This document shows positions 8,688 through 31,500 of a DNA stretch of 36,342 bases, piece after piece (position 1 is the stretch's first letter; every line of letters begins with the position of its first letter). Both the position numbers and the translations under genes were made by a program. The DNA is taken from the NCBI GenBank assembly GCA_003509895.1, contig DOMJ01000004.1, positions 1 to 36,342 on the forward strand. The letters are read 5' to 3'. Under the pieces are notes generated by a model that saw nothing but the letters and a program-made list of their open reading frames with translations, was not told the DNA's origin and did not search any database. This stretch comes from Candidatus Uhrbacteria bacterium (lineage in GTDB: Bacteria > Patescibacteriota > Patescibacteriia > UBA9934 > UBA11717).

Positions 8688-9236
8688 TTAACGTAAACAT
8701 TCTAACACGGCTCGCTCGCACTTAACAACAAACTCGTGCTGACAAACGAACTCGTTTTGCAATATGAGATCACACTTACCGCGAAACTCAGAACGCCCGT
8801 AGAACCGGTCGTTGAGTTCACGATTTATCATCTCACGTTTTTCACGGTATTCGGCCGTCTCATTACGTAGTGCCAAGCCGAGATTCGGATCTCCAATCAG
8901 GAGAACCTTAACCGCTCCGGGGAGCAACAGGAACCGATCGAAGACGTACGGCGACCCGAGAAGAATCGGACACACATGCTCAACTTCGGATTCGTTCCGA
9001 TACCCGTAGTAGGCTAAACCGTCAGGACTACGCATATCCACCATGAGACCTTTGGCGGCAATCGCTAAGTACTCCTCAGGGTTCAGGAATTCCATCTCTT
9101 GATCATCGTCACTTGCGCGACGAGGTCGAGTAGTAAGCATCCTTGGTCTGGTGAATAATTTTGGGCTTCTCTGTTGTAGACCTCTTGCGAGCGTGGATTT
9201 TCCAATACCGCTCATTCCAAATAGGACAAGAAACAT
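8688..9236 (-). CDS. Small P-loop kinase-like protein (guanylate/nucleoside kinase-like)
   Basis: N-terminal Walker A GMSGIGKST; 182 aa; AAGGAGG SD. Confidence 0.55.
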   Translation of the reverse strand: MFLVLFGMSGIGKSTLARGLQQRSPKLFTRPRMLTTRPRRASDDDQEMEFLNPEEYLAIAAKGLMVDMRSPDGLAYYGYRNESEVEHVCPILLGSPYVFDRFLLLPGAVKVLLIGDPNLGLALRNETAEYREKREMINRELNDRFYGRSEFRGKCDLILQNEFVCQHEFVVKCERAVLECLR

Positions 9237-16552: not shown

Positions 16553-17245
16553 TTAATGGGTAAGGAGTCTTCTTACTTCCCGCAATAAGGCGCGGTTATA
16601 ACCGTAGTTCATCCGTGTGGGGCCGATGATGCTCACCACTCCGTGCACGCCGGACGGATCATCAAAGGAAATAAACAAGGAGGACAGTTGCTCACCAAAC
16701 GGATTCTCATTTCCAATAAGGATGCAAACATCGTTAAATCGTTTGCGCATTAACTGAGCCATGGTTGCGTCCATTACATCCATTAGCTGACTAAATCGGC
16801 GCATCTGATCCGCACTTGCAAACTCGGGAAGTTCAAACAGTTTAGAAATACCTGTTGTATACGCATGCCGTGGACCGAGGGTAAAGACAACCGCGTTACC
16901 CGTGAGTGCCGCCAGTTGGACGCAGAGCTGCCGTAACCGCACCTCCATATTACGTACGCGCGACTGTTCTACAAGCTGCTTATACTCGCGCTCAAGCTGA
17001 CGTTTTTGCTCCAGGAACGTCTCTATGTAATAGCGATATCCTTTGTCTGTGGGAACACGTCCGGCCGACGTGTGGGGAGAGACCAGGTAGCCTTCTTCCT
17101 CCAGTTCAGCAAGATCATGACGAATCGTGGCACTGGACACACCAACGTCCGACCGCATCGCCAGTGAAGATGAACTTACCGGGTCTGCGGTTTGGATGTA
17201 GCTTTCTACAAGGAGTTTGAGTAGTTGTTCTTGTCGCTCGGTCAT
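16553..17245 (-). CDS. hrcA: Heat-inducible transcription repressor HrcA (short form)
   Basis: MTERQEQLLKLLVESYIQTADPVSSSSL...IRHDLAELEEEGYL winged-helix N-terminus. The track start is GTG 17260; I prefer ATG 17245. Confidence 0.8.
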   Translation of the reverse strand: MTERQEQLLKLLVESYIQTADPVSSSSLAMRSDVGVSSATIRHDLAELEEEGYLVSPHTSAGRVPTDKGYRYYIETFLEQKRQLEREYKQLVEQSRVRNMEVRLRQLCVQLAALTGNAVVFTLGPRHAYTTGISKLFELPEFASADQMRRFSQLMDVMDATMAQLMRKRFNDVCILIGNENPFGEQLSSLFISFDDPSGVHGVVSIIGPTRMNYGYNRALLREVRRLLTH

Positions 17246-17253
17246 GGTCTGTA

Positions 17254-17280
17254 TTAGCACTCACCATTCTACTCTGCTAG
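17254..17280 (-). promoter_or_regulatory. CIRCE-like HrcA operator (one perfect half, one degenerate half)
   Basis: Minus strand CTAGCAGAG-N9-GAGTGCTAA against the consensus TTAGCACTC-N9-GAGTGCTAA. It overlaps the -10 box and the transcription start of the hrcA promoter. Confidence 0.6.
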
Positions 17281-17294
17281 TTATTGTGTGTCAA
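17266..17294 (-). promoter_or_regulatory. Promoter of the hrcA-grpE-dnaK operon
   Basis: Minus strand TTGACA-N17-TAGAAT. Confidence 0.6.
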
Positions 17295-17362
17295 GAATCG
17301 TCTCCTTTTCTCTCAGCCGGAATACACAAATAAAAAAACCCTGTGCTGCAAGGGTCCTTCTC

Positions 17363-17698: not shown

Positions 17699-17776
17699 AA
17701 AGCTATTGTATCAATAACGAGTTCTTTTCTCTCATTTTTGTGTGGATAACAACTATGATCAAACAGAGGTTTCCCC

Positions 17777-17805
17777 TTGACAAAACAGGTCTTTTGAGAT
17801 ATGTT
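17777..17805 (+). promoter_or_regulatory. Promoter of GC-rich cassette A
   Basis: TTGACA-N17-TATGTT. The context CTTGACAAAA also appears in the cassette B promoter. Confidence 0.55.
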
Positions 17806-17835
17806 CATTTTGTTGGAAAGGTTTATTGAGTCTGT

Positions 17836-17884
17836 GAGATAAGCGCTGTGTTTATCGATCATTGGTAAACAAGGCGCTTGTCTC
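17836..17884 (+). promoter_or_regulatory. Long leader hairpin ending exactly where the GC-rich block begins
   Basis: GAGATAAGCGC (17836-17846) pairs with GCGCTTGTCTC (17874-17884), including one G-U pair. An inner TTTATC/GGTAAA stem is also present. Confidence 0.4.
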
Positions 17885-17938
17885 ATGCACGAGATGGCCG
17901 TGACCGTCCGAAGACGGATCGATTCTAGGGAGACGGTG

Positions 17939-18808
17939 ATGAAGAATTTCACACCCCCGCAGTTGGACATGTTCCGGGAGGCCGCCGCATTGGAGGCCTC
18001 CGTACTCAACCTCAGCCGAGCCCAGTTCCAAGGAGTCCTGGGCCACAAGAGGCTTCGCGGCATGCTGCGAGACCTTCTGGTGGAGCTCGGACAGGAGCGC
18101 CCGCCCAACGCGGACGAGGCTCGCGTGCGTCTGTGGGACCATTTCCTGGGGGTCTCCGATACCCGCAAGGTCTTCGGGGACCTGATCTCGGACAACATGG
18201 TCCGAGAACTGGGCGACGTGCCTGATGCTCTGCTGGCTCGTGTCAAGGCGAGCCAAAGTTCGGGCGAGATGCCGCACCTCCGGCTCTTCCTGGATCCGGG
18301 GCTGTCTATCGACGTCATGGTCCAGGTGCGAGGCGTCAACTACCGGTCCACCTACGGCGACATGATGCTCGCCAGTACCAACCAGCCTTGCTGGCGGCTG
18401 ATGGATGTTCGCCGCTTGCACAACCAGAGTGCCCGGCGGATCCTGACCATGGAGCTGATGGGTCTTCTCTCCAAGGGCATCAGCCAGACGGGTGAGTTGA
18501 AGCAGCTCCAGCTCGTCCGCAAGGACACCGCTGGTCACACGGTCTATATGACCTCGCGACAGGAGGTTCAGGGCCACAAGGTGCAAATTATCGGGTCGGT
18601 TCGGCCGAGCCAGGAGATGACCATCACGGTCCCCCTGATCCGTCCGTCGAACCAGGAATGCCGGCACGCGACGCCGGAAGAGATCCGATCCGCCTACAAC
18701 AGGGAGATTGCGCTGGAAAGCGTTACGCTGCCTGACGGGAGGCGGTTCTTCTCCACCAGGATCGACGGAGTCGTTGTCCTGGTGAGCGAGATCACCTGGA
18801 TCAAGTAG
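17939..18808 (+). CDS. GC3-rich orphan protein A (289 aa from ATG 17939; the track ORF starts at 17885)
   Basis: The open frame has strong G/C third-position bias. GGGAGA SD sits 5 nt before ATG 17939 (MKNFTPPQLDMF...). No motif recognised. The long antisense ORFs here are the expected artefact of GC3 bias. Confidence 0.65.
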   Translation: MKNFTPPQLDMFREAAALEASVLNLSRAQFQGVLGHKRLRGMLRDLLVELGQERPPNADEARVRLWDHFLGVSDTRKVFGDLISDNMVRELGDVPDALLARVKASQSSGEMPHLRLFLDPGLSIDVMVQVRGVNYRSTYGDMMLASTNQPCWRLMDVRRLHNQSARRILTMELMGLLSKGISQTGELKQLQLVRKDTAGHTVYMTSRQEVQGHKVQIIGSVRPSQEMTITVPLIRPSNQECRHATPEEIRSAYNREIALESVTLPDGRRFFSTRIDGVVVLVSEITWIK

Positions 18809-18828
18809 CCCAGCGCCTAGCACCCACG

Positions 18829-18869
18829 AGGGGGGCGTCCGCAATCCTGCGGGCGTCCCCTCTCATTTT
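18829..18869 (+). terminator. Strong intrinsic terminator of cassette A
   Basis: GAGGGGGGCGTCCGCA-ATC-CTGCGGGCGTCCCCTC (about 15 bp with G-U pairs) followed by ATTTTAT. Confidence 0.75.
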
Positions 18870-18956
18870 ATCTATTCCCTATTGACGACTTCCGTTCTTT
18901 CTTATATCCTCTCGTTGCGTTTATTCTTCAAAAGACCCCATCCCGGCCTTGCCGGA

Positions 18957-18978
18957 GACAGCGGGTTCTCATCCCGTT
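18957..18978 (+). pseudogene. tRNA-Glu-like fragment: D-stem 3' strand plus a complete anticodon arm (CUC)
   Basis: GACAGCGGGTTCTCATCCCGTT compared with the intact gene's GACAGCAGGTTCTCATCCTGCA. The stem stays paired but is GC-richer. No T-arm follows. Confidence 0.6.
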
Positions 18979-19013
18979 TACGCTCGATCGTTGCTGAAGC
19001 GCAAAAATAGAAT

Positions 19014-19035
19014 GGCCCCATCGTCTAACGGTTAG
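19014..19035 (+). pseudogene. tRNA-Glu 5' fragment (acceptor 5' strand plus D-arm up to G22)
   Basis: GGCCCCATCGTCTAACGGTTAG is identical to 19200-19221. It then diverges into a GC hairpin, CCGGCGGAGCC-TGGTCC-GGCTTCGCCGG (19037-19064). Confidence 0.7.
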
Positions 19036-19199
19036 CCCGGCGGAGCCTGGTCCGGCTTCGCCGGAGACGTACATCTAATAAAATTCATGTATTATCTCTA
19101 CATAATAAAGAGTGATGTGTTTGATCGTATTTATATCGGTACAACAGCCCATATAGATACGCGTGTAACACAACACAAAATAAAGATTTTCTGTAATAC

Positions 19200-19274
19200 G
19201 GCCCCATCGTCTAACGGTTAGGACAGCAGGTTCTCATCCTGCAAATCCGGGTTCGATTCCCGGTGGGGTCACCA
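19200..19274 (+). tRNA. tRNA-Glu (anticodon CUC), CCA encoded
   Basis: I folded the cloverleaf by hand. Acceptor GGCCCCA/TGGGGTC, D-stem GTCT/GGAC, anticodon stem GCAGG/CCTGC with loop TTCTCAT, a 4-nt variable loop, T-arm CCGGG-TTCGATT-CCCGG, discriminator A, then CCA. Confidence 0.9.
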
Positions 19275-19409
19275 ACAAAAATGCATCAGCTTGCCTGGTG
19301 CTTTTTTGTTGGCACCTCCCGCGGAAATTGAATAAGAGGGATGGTAAGGGAGAACTTCTCCCTTACTTGGGGAGGGTAACAGCGAATCCGTTTTACGGAT
19401 GAGTGCCCT
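19263..19409 (+). repeat. 147-bp direct repeat, copy A (starts inside the tRNA-Glu 3' end)
   Basis: Hand alignment with 20613-20759 shows 142/147 identical positions. The five mismatches are at repeat positions 40, 60, 63, 64 and 72. Confidence 0.9.
19275..19312. terminator. Bidirectional terminator hairpin immediately after tRNA-Glu (part of the 147-bp repeat)
   Basis: ACAAAAA-TGCATCAG-CTTGC-CTGGTGC-TTTTTTGT. In copy B the extended stem is a perfect 18 bp and includes the CCA end. Confidence 0.65.
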
Positions 19410-19473
19410 AGGGGCGGAAGCTCCTAGGGAGAGTGGAGCCGCCCATAGTCACGGGCGTGCGAAGCGACGTGAG

Positions 19474-19491
19474 TTCCCGGTGGGGTCACCA
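19474..19491 (+). repeat. Exact 18-nt duplicate of the tRNA-Glu 3' end (TTCCCGGTGGGGTCACCA)
   Basis: Identical to 19257-19274. No T-arm or 5' acceptor partner lies upstream. Confidence 0.85.
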
Positions 19492-19493
19492 GA

Positions 19494-19527
19494 AACATCG
19501 TCTCAGAAATGAGGCGATGTTTTTTTG
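19494..19527 (+). terminator. Strong intrinsic terminator right after the duplicated tRNA 3' end
   Basis: AACATCGTCTCA-GAAA-TGAGGCGATGTT (12-bp stem, GNRA loop) followed by TTTTTTT. Confidence 0.8.
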
Positions 19528-19566
19528 TAATATTCCATATCCCTCCCTGATCCCTTTTACAAAGCT

Positions 19567-20361
19567 TTGAGGGGTGTATTCATTGGTGCTATACTTAGTT
19601 CACTGGTGGTAAGTATACATTGTTTATACTCTTCACTGGTTTTTTCATCAAGACTGTTGTGTATGGACGTTATGAAAATGACACCGAAGATTTATCGAGA
19701 TACCCCTTTCTTCTTTTGGAGCATGGTTGTGTACTTTTTGGTATTTCCGATCTTGTATCTTGTCATGGATATTTTCCTTGCCGTGTCCATTATTTTTCCT
19801 CTTGTTCTCATCGGATCGATAGGGAGCCTGATAAAAGATCGGTTGTTGGGCAAGGTTGGATCAATCTTACTTCTGCTTCCATTAGTCTTAGGGTTCATTC
19901 CAGAAGGTTCGAAAGAATTTCTCGAGGGCGTGTCGAGGTTGTATCCATATTTACTGATGCTGTTCTTTGTCGTTATTTCTGTCGTGGAATTTCATAAACA
20001 GTTCAAACAAAGAGTGCATGTAGAAGATAAACGTTTGACCGTTCTAAAGAGAGGTCTTGCTGTGAATGCATTTGTTGTATTTTTCGCAGGCTGGCAAGGA
20101 CTTGTTGACTATTCAAATGGTCAGACCCAGCCATTCCTATTGGCTATTGAAGAAAACGTGCCCTTCTTCAATAGCGTAAAACTTTTACATTTCATCCTTC
20201 CTGTATTTGCACTCATCTCACTTGTGGGATTCTGCGCTTCTCTTTTCATCTATCTCAAGCATAAAAGATACGGCAAGTACGTTCTTTGGTACGCGCTATC
20301 CTTATGCGTATCGTTGTTGCTGTTTAGCTTTTTGTTCATGCTAGGCATCGCAGGTGTTTAG
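19567..20361 (+). CDS. AT-rich polytopic membrane protein (264 aa; start uncertain)
   Basis: ORF track (TTG start; internal ATGs at MDVMKM). Six to seven hydrophobic helices. Its composition is clearly AT-richer than its surroundings. Confidence 0.55.
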   Translation: MRGVFIGAILSSLVVSIHCLYSSLVFSSRLLCMDVMKMTPKIYRDTPFFFWSMVVYFLVFPILYLVMDIFLAVSIIFPLVLIGSIGSLIKDRLLGKVGSILLLLPLVLGFIPEGSKEFLEGVSRLYPYLLMLFFVVISVVEFHKQFKQRVHVEDKRLTVLKRGLAVNAFVVFFAGWQGLVDYSNGQTQPFLLAIEENVPFFNSVKLLHFILPVFALISLVGFCASLFIYLKHKRYGKYVLWYALSLCVSLLLFSFLFMLGIAGV

Positions 20362-20612
20362 GATTTCTTGGGGCTGGTTAGAGAGAAGTTCTCAGATACT
20401 CACTCGGAACACATCCAGTATTTCACTTGGTGTTTTGTTTAGAGCAGTTATTACATTCTTATTCGAAGAAGTGTCTTTAAAATCTCCTAATAATACGGTA
20501 GTACATTGAATTAGATAACTCTTCCCGATCCGTCATACCCCCGCCACAACCAACTCTCGAAACTCCATCCACCCCCTCATCTCCTCCACCCATTGGTTCC
20601 AACGAAGTCCCC

Positions 20613-20759
20613 GTGGGGTCACCAACAAAAATGCATCAGCTTGCCTGGTGCATTTTTGTTGGCACCTCCCGTGGGGATTGAATCAGAGGGATGGTAAGGG
20701 AGAACTTCTCCCTTACTTGGGGAGGGTAACAGCGAATCCGTTTTACGGATGAGTGCCCT
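20613..20759 (+). repeat. 147-bp direct repeat, copy B (preceded by an imperfect tRNA 3' end, TCCCCGTGGGGTCACCA)
   Basis: See copy A. Confidence 0.9.
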
Positions 20760-31060: not shown

Positions 31061-31093
31061 CCCCCTCCTGCACATGGAGGGACGCGAAAAAAG

Positions 31094-31130
31094 AGGGGCT
31101 CCGCAATCTGCGTGAGCCCCTTTTCCTTTT
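31094..31130 (+). terminator. Terminator of cassette B, homologous to the cassette A terminator
   Basis: AGGGGCTC-CGCA-ATC-TGCG-T-GAGCCCCT followed by TTTCCTTTT. Confidence 0.75.
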
Positions 31131-31140
31131 ATCTCTTTTT

Positions 31141-31500
31141 CTATTGTGCCGCAGCGATCGCTGCAACAAGTTTTGCCCTGAGACCCGTGAACGCCGTAAC
31201 GGCTGCCTCATAATCTTCATCTCGAATCGCACGCGATCCCACATACCCTTCTTCCTCCCACGCGCTCAGCTGCGTAGCATCGACACCTGCAGTACTCGCA
31301 TCAATGAGCAATTGACCAACTTCGAGCATCAAATTCAACGACTCCGTTTTTGCAGCACTGTTCATAACAGGTACTGTGGCGCTTGGCACCTCTTGCGGAG
31401 GAGCCGCGATCGGTTCTGGCGTAATCGAATCAGATGGTTGAGAAAAACACCCGGCTCCTAAAAAAGAAACAGCCGCCAGAGATAAAATGAGTTTGTTCAT
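31141..31500 (-). CDS. Small lipoprotein
   Basis: Signal peptide with lipobox: MNKLILSLAAVSFLGAGC. Confidence 0.7.
   Translation of the reverse strand: MNKLILSLAAVSFLGAGCFSQPSDSITPEPIAAPPQEVPSATVPVMNSAAKTESLNLMLEVGQLLIDASTAGVDATQLSAWEEEGYVGSRAIRDEDYEAAVTAFTGLRAKLVAAIAAAQ

Follow-up and report, generated by a model that had tools for sequence, protein, structure and literature searches.

What is a single GC-rich gene with no recognisable domain doing beside a tRNA gene, and from where did it come? This question is raised by cassette A, located at positions 17777-18869 of a 36,342-nt stretch of Candidatus Uhrbacteria DNA (contig DOMJ01000004.1 of assembly GCA_003509895.1), which in its entirety we refer to as the window. 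A preliminary description had regarded cassette A as a self-contained and compositionally odd single-gene unit, the protein of which is an orphan without recognisable relatives, and as an integrative element that had landed at a tRNA. While the unit was indeed found as such, with promoter, leader, open reading frame (ORF), and terminator in place, its origin now appears in a different light. Cassette A is probably a divergent offshoot, devoid of a variable region, of the gene family that provides the targets of diversity-generating retroelements (DGRs) in the Candidate Phyla Radiation (CPR/Patescibacteria). Here, the family promoter, the two-hairpin leader, and the first ~155 residues would have been kept, with the C-terminal third, which in canonical members bears the rewritten variable tip, having become unrecognisable, and the gene would most likely make a fixed, non-diversified soluble protein. 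In what follows, G000 denotes the genome analysed here (a 793-kb assembly with 48% GC that is 91.7% complete, and in which the window is contig C53), G002 its sister species from the same genus, and P0001 the cassette A protein.

The leader and its homologs

The mRNA leader of cassette A (Table 1) is dominated by a long hairpin, hairpin 1, made up of 15 + 10 bp with one 1x1 internal loop and a 3-nt loop, and for which the folding energy of -34.0 kcal/mol (z = -6.2) was matched by 0 of 200 shuffles. An 11-bp hairpin at 17836-17884 had been described earlier, and this is real, though it proved to be only the perfect core of a 25-bp structure that spans 17833-17887. To find its homologs, we ran a covariance model built on the hairpin (R1) against 151 genomes from the order, which gave matches in G023 (43 bits), G093, G122, G087, G058, and G047, with other families being included among these, and a second model (R2), searched over 151 genomes sampled evenly from the class, revealed 5 further genomes with the leader. 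The homologous leaders also share the promoter, a basal stem (CAUGAGAUARGCGCUUUG / AGCGCUUGUCUCAUG), a variable apical stem, a linker (YYCGAGRY), and a second small hairpin, and their common pattern reads CAUGAGAUARGCGCUUUG...AGCGCUUGUCUCAUG-YYCGAGRY-GGCCGUGACCGUCCGAWGACGGAUC-SD-AUG, where SD is the Shine-Dalgarno site. The sequence of hairpin 2 is kept in G023, G093, G087, and G265, and other small hairpins take its place elsewhere.

Covariation was assessed with a MAFFT alignment of 13 sense-strand copies. In helix 1, 93% of the cells are paired and 15 of the 25 pairs are changed on both sides among the 13 sequences, a count somewhat biased by the copies having been found with a structure-aware model. 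The covariation score for this helix was 0.488 and fell to 0.11-0.15 with slid partners, and none of the measures was reached by any shuffle (0 of 500). Covariation in hairpin 2 is weaker, with 68% of the cells paired. Moreover, the sense strand gave 84.7 bits and -34 kcal/mol, versus 25.7 bits and -20.5 kcal/mol for the antisense strand, and because of this asymmetry and the conserved G-U pairs, we assign the leader structure to the sense transcript.

The leader found no match in Rfam 15 at E <= 1 for the window, nor at E <= 0.1 for five homologous loci, and the DGR and Uhrbacteria literature that we searched contains no description of a DGR-target leader or of GC-rich cassettes in Uhrbacteria. 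Apparently, then, the leader hairpin is an RNA motif undescribed so far and found across the class. Within G000, the leader is single-copy and its hairpin has no sequence relation to the terminator hairpin, for which reasons a repeated-hairpin element (an integron attC site, a repetitive extragenic palindrome or miniature inverted-repeat transposable element, or an IS200/IS605 end) was rejected. An 18-nt match to the leader on contig C5 lies inside a coding gene and was set aside as chance.

Genes downstream of the leader

Most of the leader homologs precede genes of a CPR protein family of ~260 aa, which are confirmed DGR targets in that they show variable region/template repeat (VR/TR) pairs with mismatches at template adenines, and have Avd and a reverse transcriptase (RT) downstream. 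In G023, for instance, the leader is followed by a 260-aa gene, the 3' end of which (8946-9068, the last 120 nt) is repeated 520 nt downstream with every mismatch being an A in the downstream copy, and beyond this repeat there is a small reverse-oriented ORF and then a PF00078 reverse transcriptase. Such a layout is that of the CPR architecture B3, target-TR-(avd)-RT (Wu et al., 2018; PMC5758913). Contig C8 of the sister species shows the same layout (leader 307-416, VR 1117-1236, TR 1652-1771, and RT), and this genome has two complete DGRs with two RTs, both on contigs other than that of cassette A. In G122, an RT is located ~2 kb downstream of the leader. The ~260-aa family comprises > 250 clusters, with none of those listed having a Pfam domain. 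Moreover, when family members were chosen by protein alone, an RT or Avd was adjacent in 3 of 4, and the leader stood directly before the ATG in 2 of the 3 for which DNA was available.

One canonical family member, P0109 (L089 3001-3783), sits alone between HAD-hydrolase and scpA genes, with no RT within 3 kb and no leader match, and is a stranded DGR target.

Probable relationship of the cassette A protein to DGR targets

Rather than the leader alone, the protein too connects cassette A with this family. BLASTP aligned residues 43-155 of P0001 with residues 38-159 of the DGR target on contig C8 of G002 (E 1e-5 with 25% identity, a weak similarity), phmmer matched P0001 to the family at E 1.1e-4 in a 135-sequence set, and hhalign paired residues 3-97 with family positions 4-100 at E 8e-4. 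All three alignments are collinear, and place an N-terminal motif (NFTPPQ in the one, ITSPQ in the other) at the same position. Residues ~3-155 of P0001 are by these measures weakly related to CPR DGR targets, while residues ~160-289 have no detectable relative. From such alignments we judge it probable, and with somewhat more confidence than for the origin of the cassette as a whole, that the front half of the protein is homologous to DGR targets, with the last 130 residues having been either replaced or diverged beyond recognition. As both the leader RNA and the first ~155 residues lead back to a CPR family, the term orphan no longer fits the gene.

Several results weigh against this reading. 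With hhalign, the front half reaches a probability of only 24%, and no alignment of the C-terminal halves was obtained (2.8% over just 23 columns). A hidden Markov model (HMM) of 135 DGR-target-family and other leader-associated proteins scored P0001 no better than its shuffled copies, and a six-frame search of G000 with the DGR-target family found nothing. Fold support is likewise absent, in that the AlphaFold2 models from a single sequence and a two-sequence alignment were unusable, with predicted local distance difference test (pLDDT) values of 34 and 32. The incompleteness of G000 means that an RT or TR could be missing from the assembly, and with two gene variants only, selection on the leader is inseparable from a recent conversion tract at the cassette A locus. 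Finally, the leader also occurs before genes that are not recognisably of the DGR-target family, these being in G047 (241 aa), G242 (397 aa), G189/G058, and G292, and it could therefore have joined an unrelated gene.

This last point opens up the best surviving alternative, according to which the promoter-leader module is portable, serves several unrelated gene families of these bacteria in expression or regulation, and was captured here by an unrelated gene. The ORF would then be a genuine orphan that came from a foreign, GC-rich source, and would resemble DGR targets, weakly, by coincidence. In line with this are the mutual dissimilarity of the genes just mentioned, the failure of the family HMM on P0001, and the occupancy of the same slot by different GC-rich genes in other genera. 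G000 also has ~25 other ORFs rich in GC at the third codon position (GC3), which are unrelated to each other, and of the 10 tested, 2 are cell-wall hydrolases (SLT and M23) and 8 are without a Pfam domain. Against a captured leader, however, are the agreement of three independent methods on collinear alignments from the N-terminus, the best match being the DGR target of the sister genome, and the way in which the block identical between species (Table 1) runs seamlessly from the leader into the coding sequence. On balance, we consider the capture of a leader by an unrelated gene unlikely, and favor descent of cassette A from the DGR-target family.

GC-rich composition and the tRNA-Glu locus

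Cassette A lies within the gene order dnaJ, an uncharacterised gene, dnaK, grpE, hrcA, and K+ channel (all on the minus strand), cassette A (plus strand), the tRNA-Glu region, and a Na+/H+ exchanger gene, and so its placement between a K+ channel gene and tRNA-Glu, as first described, holds. Upstream of hrcA, there is a CIRCE-like (controlling inverted repeat of chaperone expression) repeat (TTAGCACTC-N9-CTCTGCTAG) at 17245-17300 of the window, which is expected for an HrcA-regulated dnaK operon. Independent assemblies from ENA, JGI, and Logan contain the cassette A sequence between identical flanks, and cassette A is therefore no chimera; the sequence is present in a metagenome of Rifle-type groundwater and in four further assemblies.

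In 200-nt windows, GC content rises from 0.385 (17700-17899) to 0.615-0.65 (17900-18299). The jump had been placed at ~17885 and called sharp; its position agrees with a maximum-likelihood change point at 17873 (GC of 0.41 before it and 0.63 after it), but the support interval, 17863-17956, makes the step less than razor sharp. Nor does the jump mark the cassette boundary, since the unit that the two species have in common begins within the promoter spacer, at 17796, which is ~80-90 nt upstream of the GC step. As for the GC-rich block, the GC3 values of DGR-target-family and leader genes are 0.86, 0.88, 0.86, 0.90, 0.77, 0.85, 0.85, and 0.75-0.78, in loci with an overall GC content of 0.42-0.59. 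Because the family is GC3-rich relative to the respective genome in every case measured, the block in cassette A is accounted for; it is an inherited family trait and does not point to a sequence newly inserted from some remote donor. One puzzling GC-rich "orphan" of small genomes is in this way explained without a foreign insertion. Candidate causes for the GC3 richness of the family are a spread from GC-richer lineages and GC-biased gene conversion at frequently recombining loci, a concept treated by Lassalle et al. (PMC4450053).

The tRNA-Glu region (18937-20759) is scrambled, and the view of it as a hot spot is borne out. Preceding the true tRNA (19200-19274) are a degenerate tRNA-like copy (anticodon arm at 18957-18974) and a 5' fragment (19014-19036). 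The tRNA-Glu 3' end occurs in three copies (19257, 19474, and 20607), and an AT-rich segment of 1.35 kb with a 264-aa ORF (19567-20361) lies between the two copies of a 152-nt direct repeat (19258-19409 and 20608-20759; 96% identical). No Pfam family, integrase included, could be assigned to this ORF. Altogether, the locus looks like the remains of serial integrations.

The earlier view was that cassette A is itself the cargo of an integrative element that came to tRNA-Glu from a distant GC-rich donor. Such an origin could draw on the three tRNA-Glu 3' ends, the 152-nt repeat, and the 5' tRNA fragments at 18957-19056, as well as on G001, in which hrcA is next to tRNA-Glu and no cassette is present. 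However, the cassette lies 5' of the tRNA, has no flanking repeats, and has six neighbouring ORFs in which a scan found no Pfam integrase family. The closest relative offers no empty site, as G002 carries the cassette at the same site beside an intact and unscrambled tRNA-Glu. With no relative among the viral contigs scanned, and with a leader and front half native to CPR, we find delivery by an integrative element improbable, and descent within the DGR-target family again gives the better account.

Divergence from the sister species

G002 is the only relative with cassette A, which is in the same slot between K+ channel and tRNA-Glu genes. A search of 59 further relatives, including 56 high-quality genomes, gave no match, and in G001, a much more distant congener (HrcA 58% identical), hrcA directly adjoins tRNA-Glu. 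Protein collections of 5.8 billion and 1.84 billion sequences contained the G002 variant (79% identical) as the sole true relative; a match to P0004, a 2040-aa repeat protein (E 2.5e-5), was judged chance, as the G002 ortholog has no similarity to it. Likewise, a metagenome contig scan returned only the G002 contig, and the viral and genome contigs scanned held no relative. In no case did cassette A prove to belong to a housekeeping family residing at this locus.

Other single-gene units were observed nearby. In G003, from another genus, the slot after the K+ channel gene (L032 3040-3760, C11) is filled by a different gene, which is GC3-rich (0.79), codes for a membrane protein, and has a promoter and a terminator of its own. 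In G002, an extra GC-rich single-gene unit without a counterpart in G000 lies on the minus strand between hrcA and the K+ channel gene (L009 6930-7772; C7 ~209930-210772), and consists of a TTGACA-17-TAAGTT promoter, an SD, a gene for a ~236-aa membrane protein, and a terminator. Taken with the slot contents of G001, these units indicate that intergenic slots here gain and lose single-gene units.

Between G000 and G002, the synonymous divergence (dS) of cassette A is 0.25, as against 1.56, 1.79, 2.5, 1.64, or saturation for the eight flanking genes. Its synonymous-codon difference of 0.109 is the 7th lowest of 224 ortholog pairs taken from one 315-kb G002 contig (median 0.506, 5th percentile 0.174), and ranked beside it are cassette B, another cassette of the window (0.105), and a third gene with GC3 > 0.8 (0.122). 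Because dS is far below that of the flanking genes and the leader block is near-identical, we conclude that the cassette A unit was recently shared. As judged by this divergence pattern, the unit from the -10 box to the terminator passed between the two sister Uhrbacteria lineages through exchange or conversion, considerably later than the split of their genomes, which makes cassette A a quantified case of unit-wise exchange between species over a saturated backbone. Identity along the unit forms a mosaic, with 58-78% at the centre (18190-18400), 98% over the last 90 nt and terminator, and 86% for the ORF overall, and outside the unit it drops to 66-78% (68-78% for the upstream DNA). The exchange was probably made in pieces, and either direction or a third donor is compatible with the data.

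Low dS as a by-product of selection on GC3 was rejected, since all 28 of the 28 synonymous differences in cassette A are GC<->AT changes. Nor could it be maintained that GC3-rich genes are generally low in dS (group test not significant, p 0.16); all 3 of the GC3 > 0.8 genes with orthologs on the G002 contig have a low dS (0.16-0.23), saturation was seen in two genes with a GC3 near 0.72, and a low dS also in several genes of normal GC. Examples of the latter, with a very low dS (0.06-0.3) in a saturated backbone, are at C35:16618-20411, C7:5229-6379, C9:489-2000, and C5:5302-6753, and therefore recent interspecies exchange extends beyond GC-rich cassettes.

Two independent short Logan assemblies of the cassette A gene (contigs L005 and L006) both start exactly at 17793, 3 nt before the interspecies-identical block, and their common start may represent a population variant or an alternative left junction.

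Search for a template repeat and reverse transcriptase

No repeat of any part of cassette A was found in G000 by a search for which the VR/TR pairs found in G023 and G002 served as positive controls. Moreover, the two TRs of G002 have no match to cassette A beyond 20 nt of the leader, and the assembly of G000 has no PF00078 match. Lacking these, cassette A is therefore not an evident DGR target at present. Alternatively, cassette A might still be an active target of a remote DGR, with a VR that has gone unrecognised, and with the RT and TR missing from the incomplete assembly. G002 does carry two complete DGRs, DGR loci often assemble poorly, and divergence in the middle of the gene (aa ~100-150; nonsynonymous divergence, dN, of 0.35) far exceeds that at its ends. 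Yet the diverged middle also has a raised dS, its changes are not confined to codon positions 1-2, and it does not correspond to the C-terminal VR of the family. Together with the searches above, this renders ongoing diversification very improbable, and is more consistent with a DGR-target offshoot that has left the system.

Transcription unit and coding potential

The features of cassette A are collected in Table 1, and from these signals positions 17777-18869 are predicted to be one self-contained, monocistronic transcription unit that extends from promoter to terminator.

Table 1. Predicted features of cassette A and adjacent genes (window positions).
Feature	Position	Strand	Remarks
Sigma-70-type promoter, TTGACA-17 nt-TATGTT	17777..17805 (TTGACA from 17777, TATGTT from 17805)	+	consensus scan
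5' leader	127 nt, between promoter and ATG 17939	+	two hairpins and SD
Leader hairpin 1	17833..17887	+	25 bp; conserved core UGAGAUAAGCGC / GCGCUUGUCUCA; variable apical stem
Leader hairpin 2, CCGUC-CGAA-GACGG	17904..17917	+	within conserved stretch GGCCGUGACCGUCCGAWGACGGAUC
Shine-Dalgarno site, GGGAGA	17928..17933	+	5-6 nt before ATG; read from sequence
Protein-coding gene	17939..18808 (stop 18806-18808)	+	289 aa + stop; 62% GC, GC3 0.82
Intrinsic terminator	18828..18869 (stem 18830-18861, then T run)	+	-31.9 kcal/mol, z -6.0
Interspecies-identical block	17796..17978	+	1 mismatch (17812); spans -10 box, whole leader, and first 13 codons
K+ channel gene, PF07885	17363-17698	-	upstream neighbour
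tRNA-Glu(CTC)	19200-19274		downstream neighbour, with extra tRNA-Glu fragments around

The divergent K+ channel gene has a -35-like TTGTCA with which the -35 box of cassette A overlaps, and in comparison with G002, the cassette A box is conserved and the spacer diverged. An extended -35 motif, CTTGACAAAA, has 9 copies in the G000 genome (C8:3005, C33:3969, C45:13631, C45:43708, C53:17776, C53:28770, and three others), and as judged by coordinates, 6 of the 9, those of cassettes A and B included, are directly upstream of a GC3-rich ORF. At the other end, the terminator is 98% identical to that of G002. Its loop motif, CGCAATC(C)TGCG, has exactly 2 copies in the 793-kb genome, one after cassette A and the other after cassette B (31102). 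Cassettes A (18828-18890) and B (31089-31146) also end in homologous terminator modules, with both then continuing as TTTTATCTnTT...CTATTG.

By its codon structure and mode of divergence, the cassette A ORF is, in our assessment, a real protein-coding gene. GC at codon positions 1/2/3 is 0.64/0.41/0.82 over the 289 codons, and relative to the G002 ortholog there are 118 substitutions (13.6% divergence) with no indel and no stop over 870 nt, and a dN/dS of 0.49. A 330-codon open frame on the opposite strand is a shadow of the real frame, because its GC peak would fall at codon position 1. That GC richness alone gave rise to the ORF and the unit is in truth a non-coding RNA, a view for which one could cite this opposite frame and the mild enrichment of substitutions at codon position 3 (49 versus 34 and 35), is hardly credible given the GC periodicity, the absence of indels, the dN/dS, an SD at the right spacing, and an N-terminus that matches a protein family.

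The start at ATG 17939 with its GGGAGA SD, as originally proposed, is supported because the protein alignments to the DGR-target family begin at the shared N-terminal motif, with the family alignment starting at residue 3. An upstream ATG at 17885 is part of the conserved arm of the hairpin, and its counterparts in homologous leaders either lie out of frame or have a stop after them. Having no signal peptide or transmembrane (TM) segment, the product appears to be soluble. The reported absence of a recognisable domain stands as well, as neither Pfam, NCBIfam, PHROG, nor PADLOC gave a match to cassette A. The ESM Atlas offered no usable match for the whole protein or for residues 150-289, and profile searches of the PDB with the protein returned nothing below E 0.5.

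Possible role of the leader and comparison with known systems

A leader of this form would act in cis on mRNA stability or translation, probably through a sequence-specific factor that would bind the invariant basal stem. Going further, we tentatively propose, as a possibility that we hold to be less likely than the family origin of cassette A, that the two-hairpin leader represents a cis-acting RNA element of a new class, by which the genes of DGR variable proteins are marked across CPR/Patescibacteria and which persists on derivatives that no longer have a retroelement. Here, the basal stem (UGAG...CUCA with inner GC pairs) would dock a dedicated factor, and cassette A would be a target that was recruited to a fixed function and is still so controlled. 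If this is true, then the docked factor would be a regulator that coordinates variable-protein expression, or a component that ties the target transcript to the DGR machinery. DGR targets are abundant in CPR, and no regulatory signal for them is reported in the literature searched. The leader motif thus provides a concrete handle on such targets, be it for searching, for probing of ligands or binding proteins, or for transcriptome tracking.

Of the known systems, the CPR DGR targets (DGR clade 2, Roux et al., 2021, PMC8144416; B3, Wu et al., 2018, PMC5758913) bear the closest comparison. Cassette A shares with them a homologous promoter and two-hairpin leader, the N-terminal motif with the first ~155 residues in a weak but collinear alignment, a GC3-rich coding sequence, and a stand-alone organization from promoter to terminator. 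Moreover, clade 2 targets are reported to be without a signal peptide or TM segment (PMC8144416), as is cassette A. In contrast, cassette A lacks a recognisable C-terminal variable region (the family ends in ...LGVSxxRKF), a TR, and a nearby Avd or RT, and its protein is ~30 residues longer, with the last 130 residues unrelated to the family. Cassette A also resembles stranded DGR targets without an RT (e.g., P0109) in being a DGR-target-type gene alone among housekeeping genes. However, while these retain the canonical lectin-type tip and are easily found by sequence, cassette A has diverged beyond HMM detection. It may thereby show a possible fate of a DGR target after retroelement loss, in which the front half and regulation are kept and the variable tip is replaced.

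Like phage morons, cassette A consists of one gene between a promoter and a terminator of its own, has a composition unlike that of its surroundings, and is gained or lost as a unit, though it is located outside a prophage, has no relative in viral contigs, and is inherited or exchanged at a fixed chromosomal slot. With respect to the leader, cis-acting stem-loops of 5' untranslated regions, such as mRNA-stabilising 5' hairpins and ribosomal-protein leaders, are similar in that a long stable hairpin stands close to the transcript's 5' end, with a small hairpin and the SD after it, and in cassette A too it is the basal stem that keeps its sequence, with the apical stem varying freely. What sets the cassette A leader apart from these elements is that it is without a match in Rfam 15, and that its association with DGR targets is new relative to the DGR literature searched.

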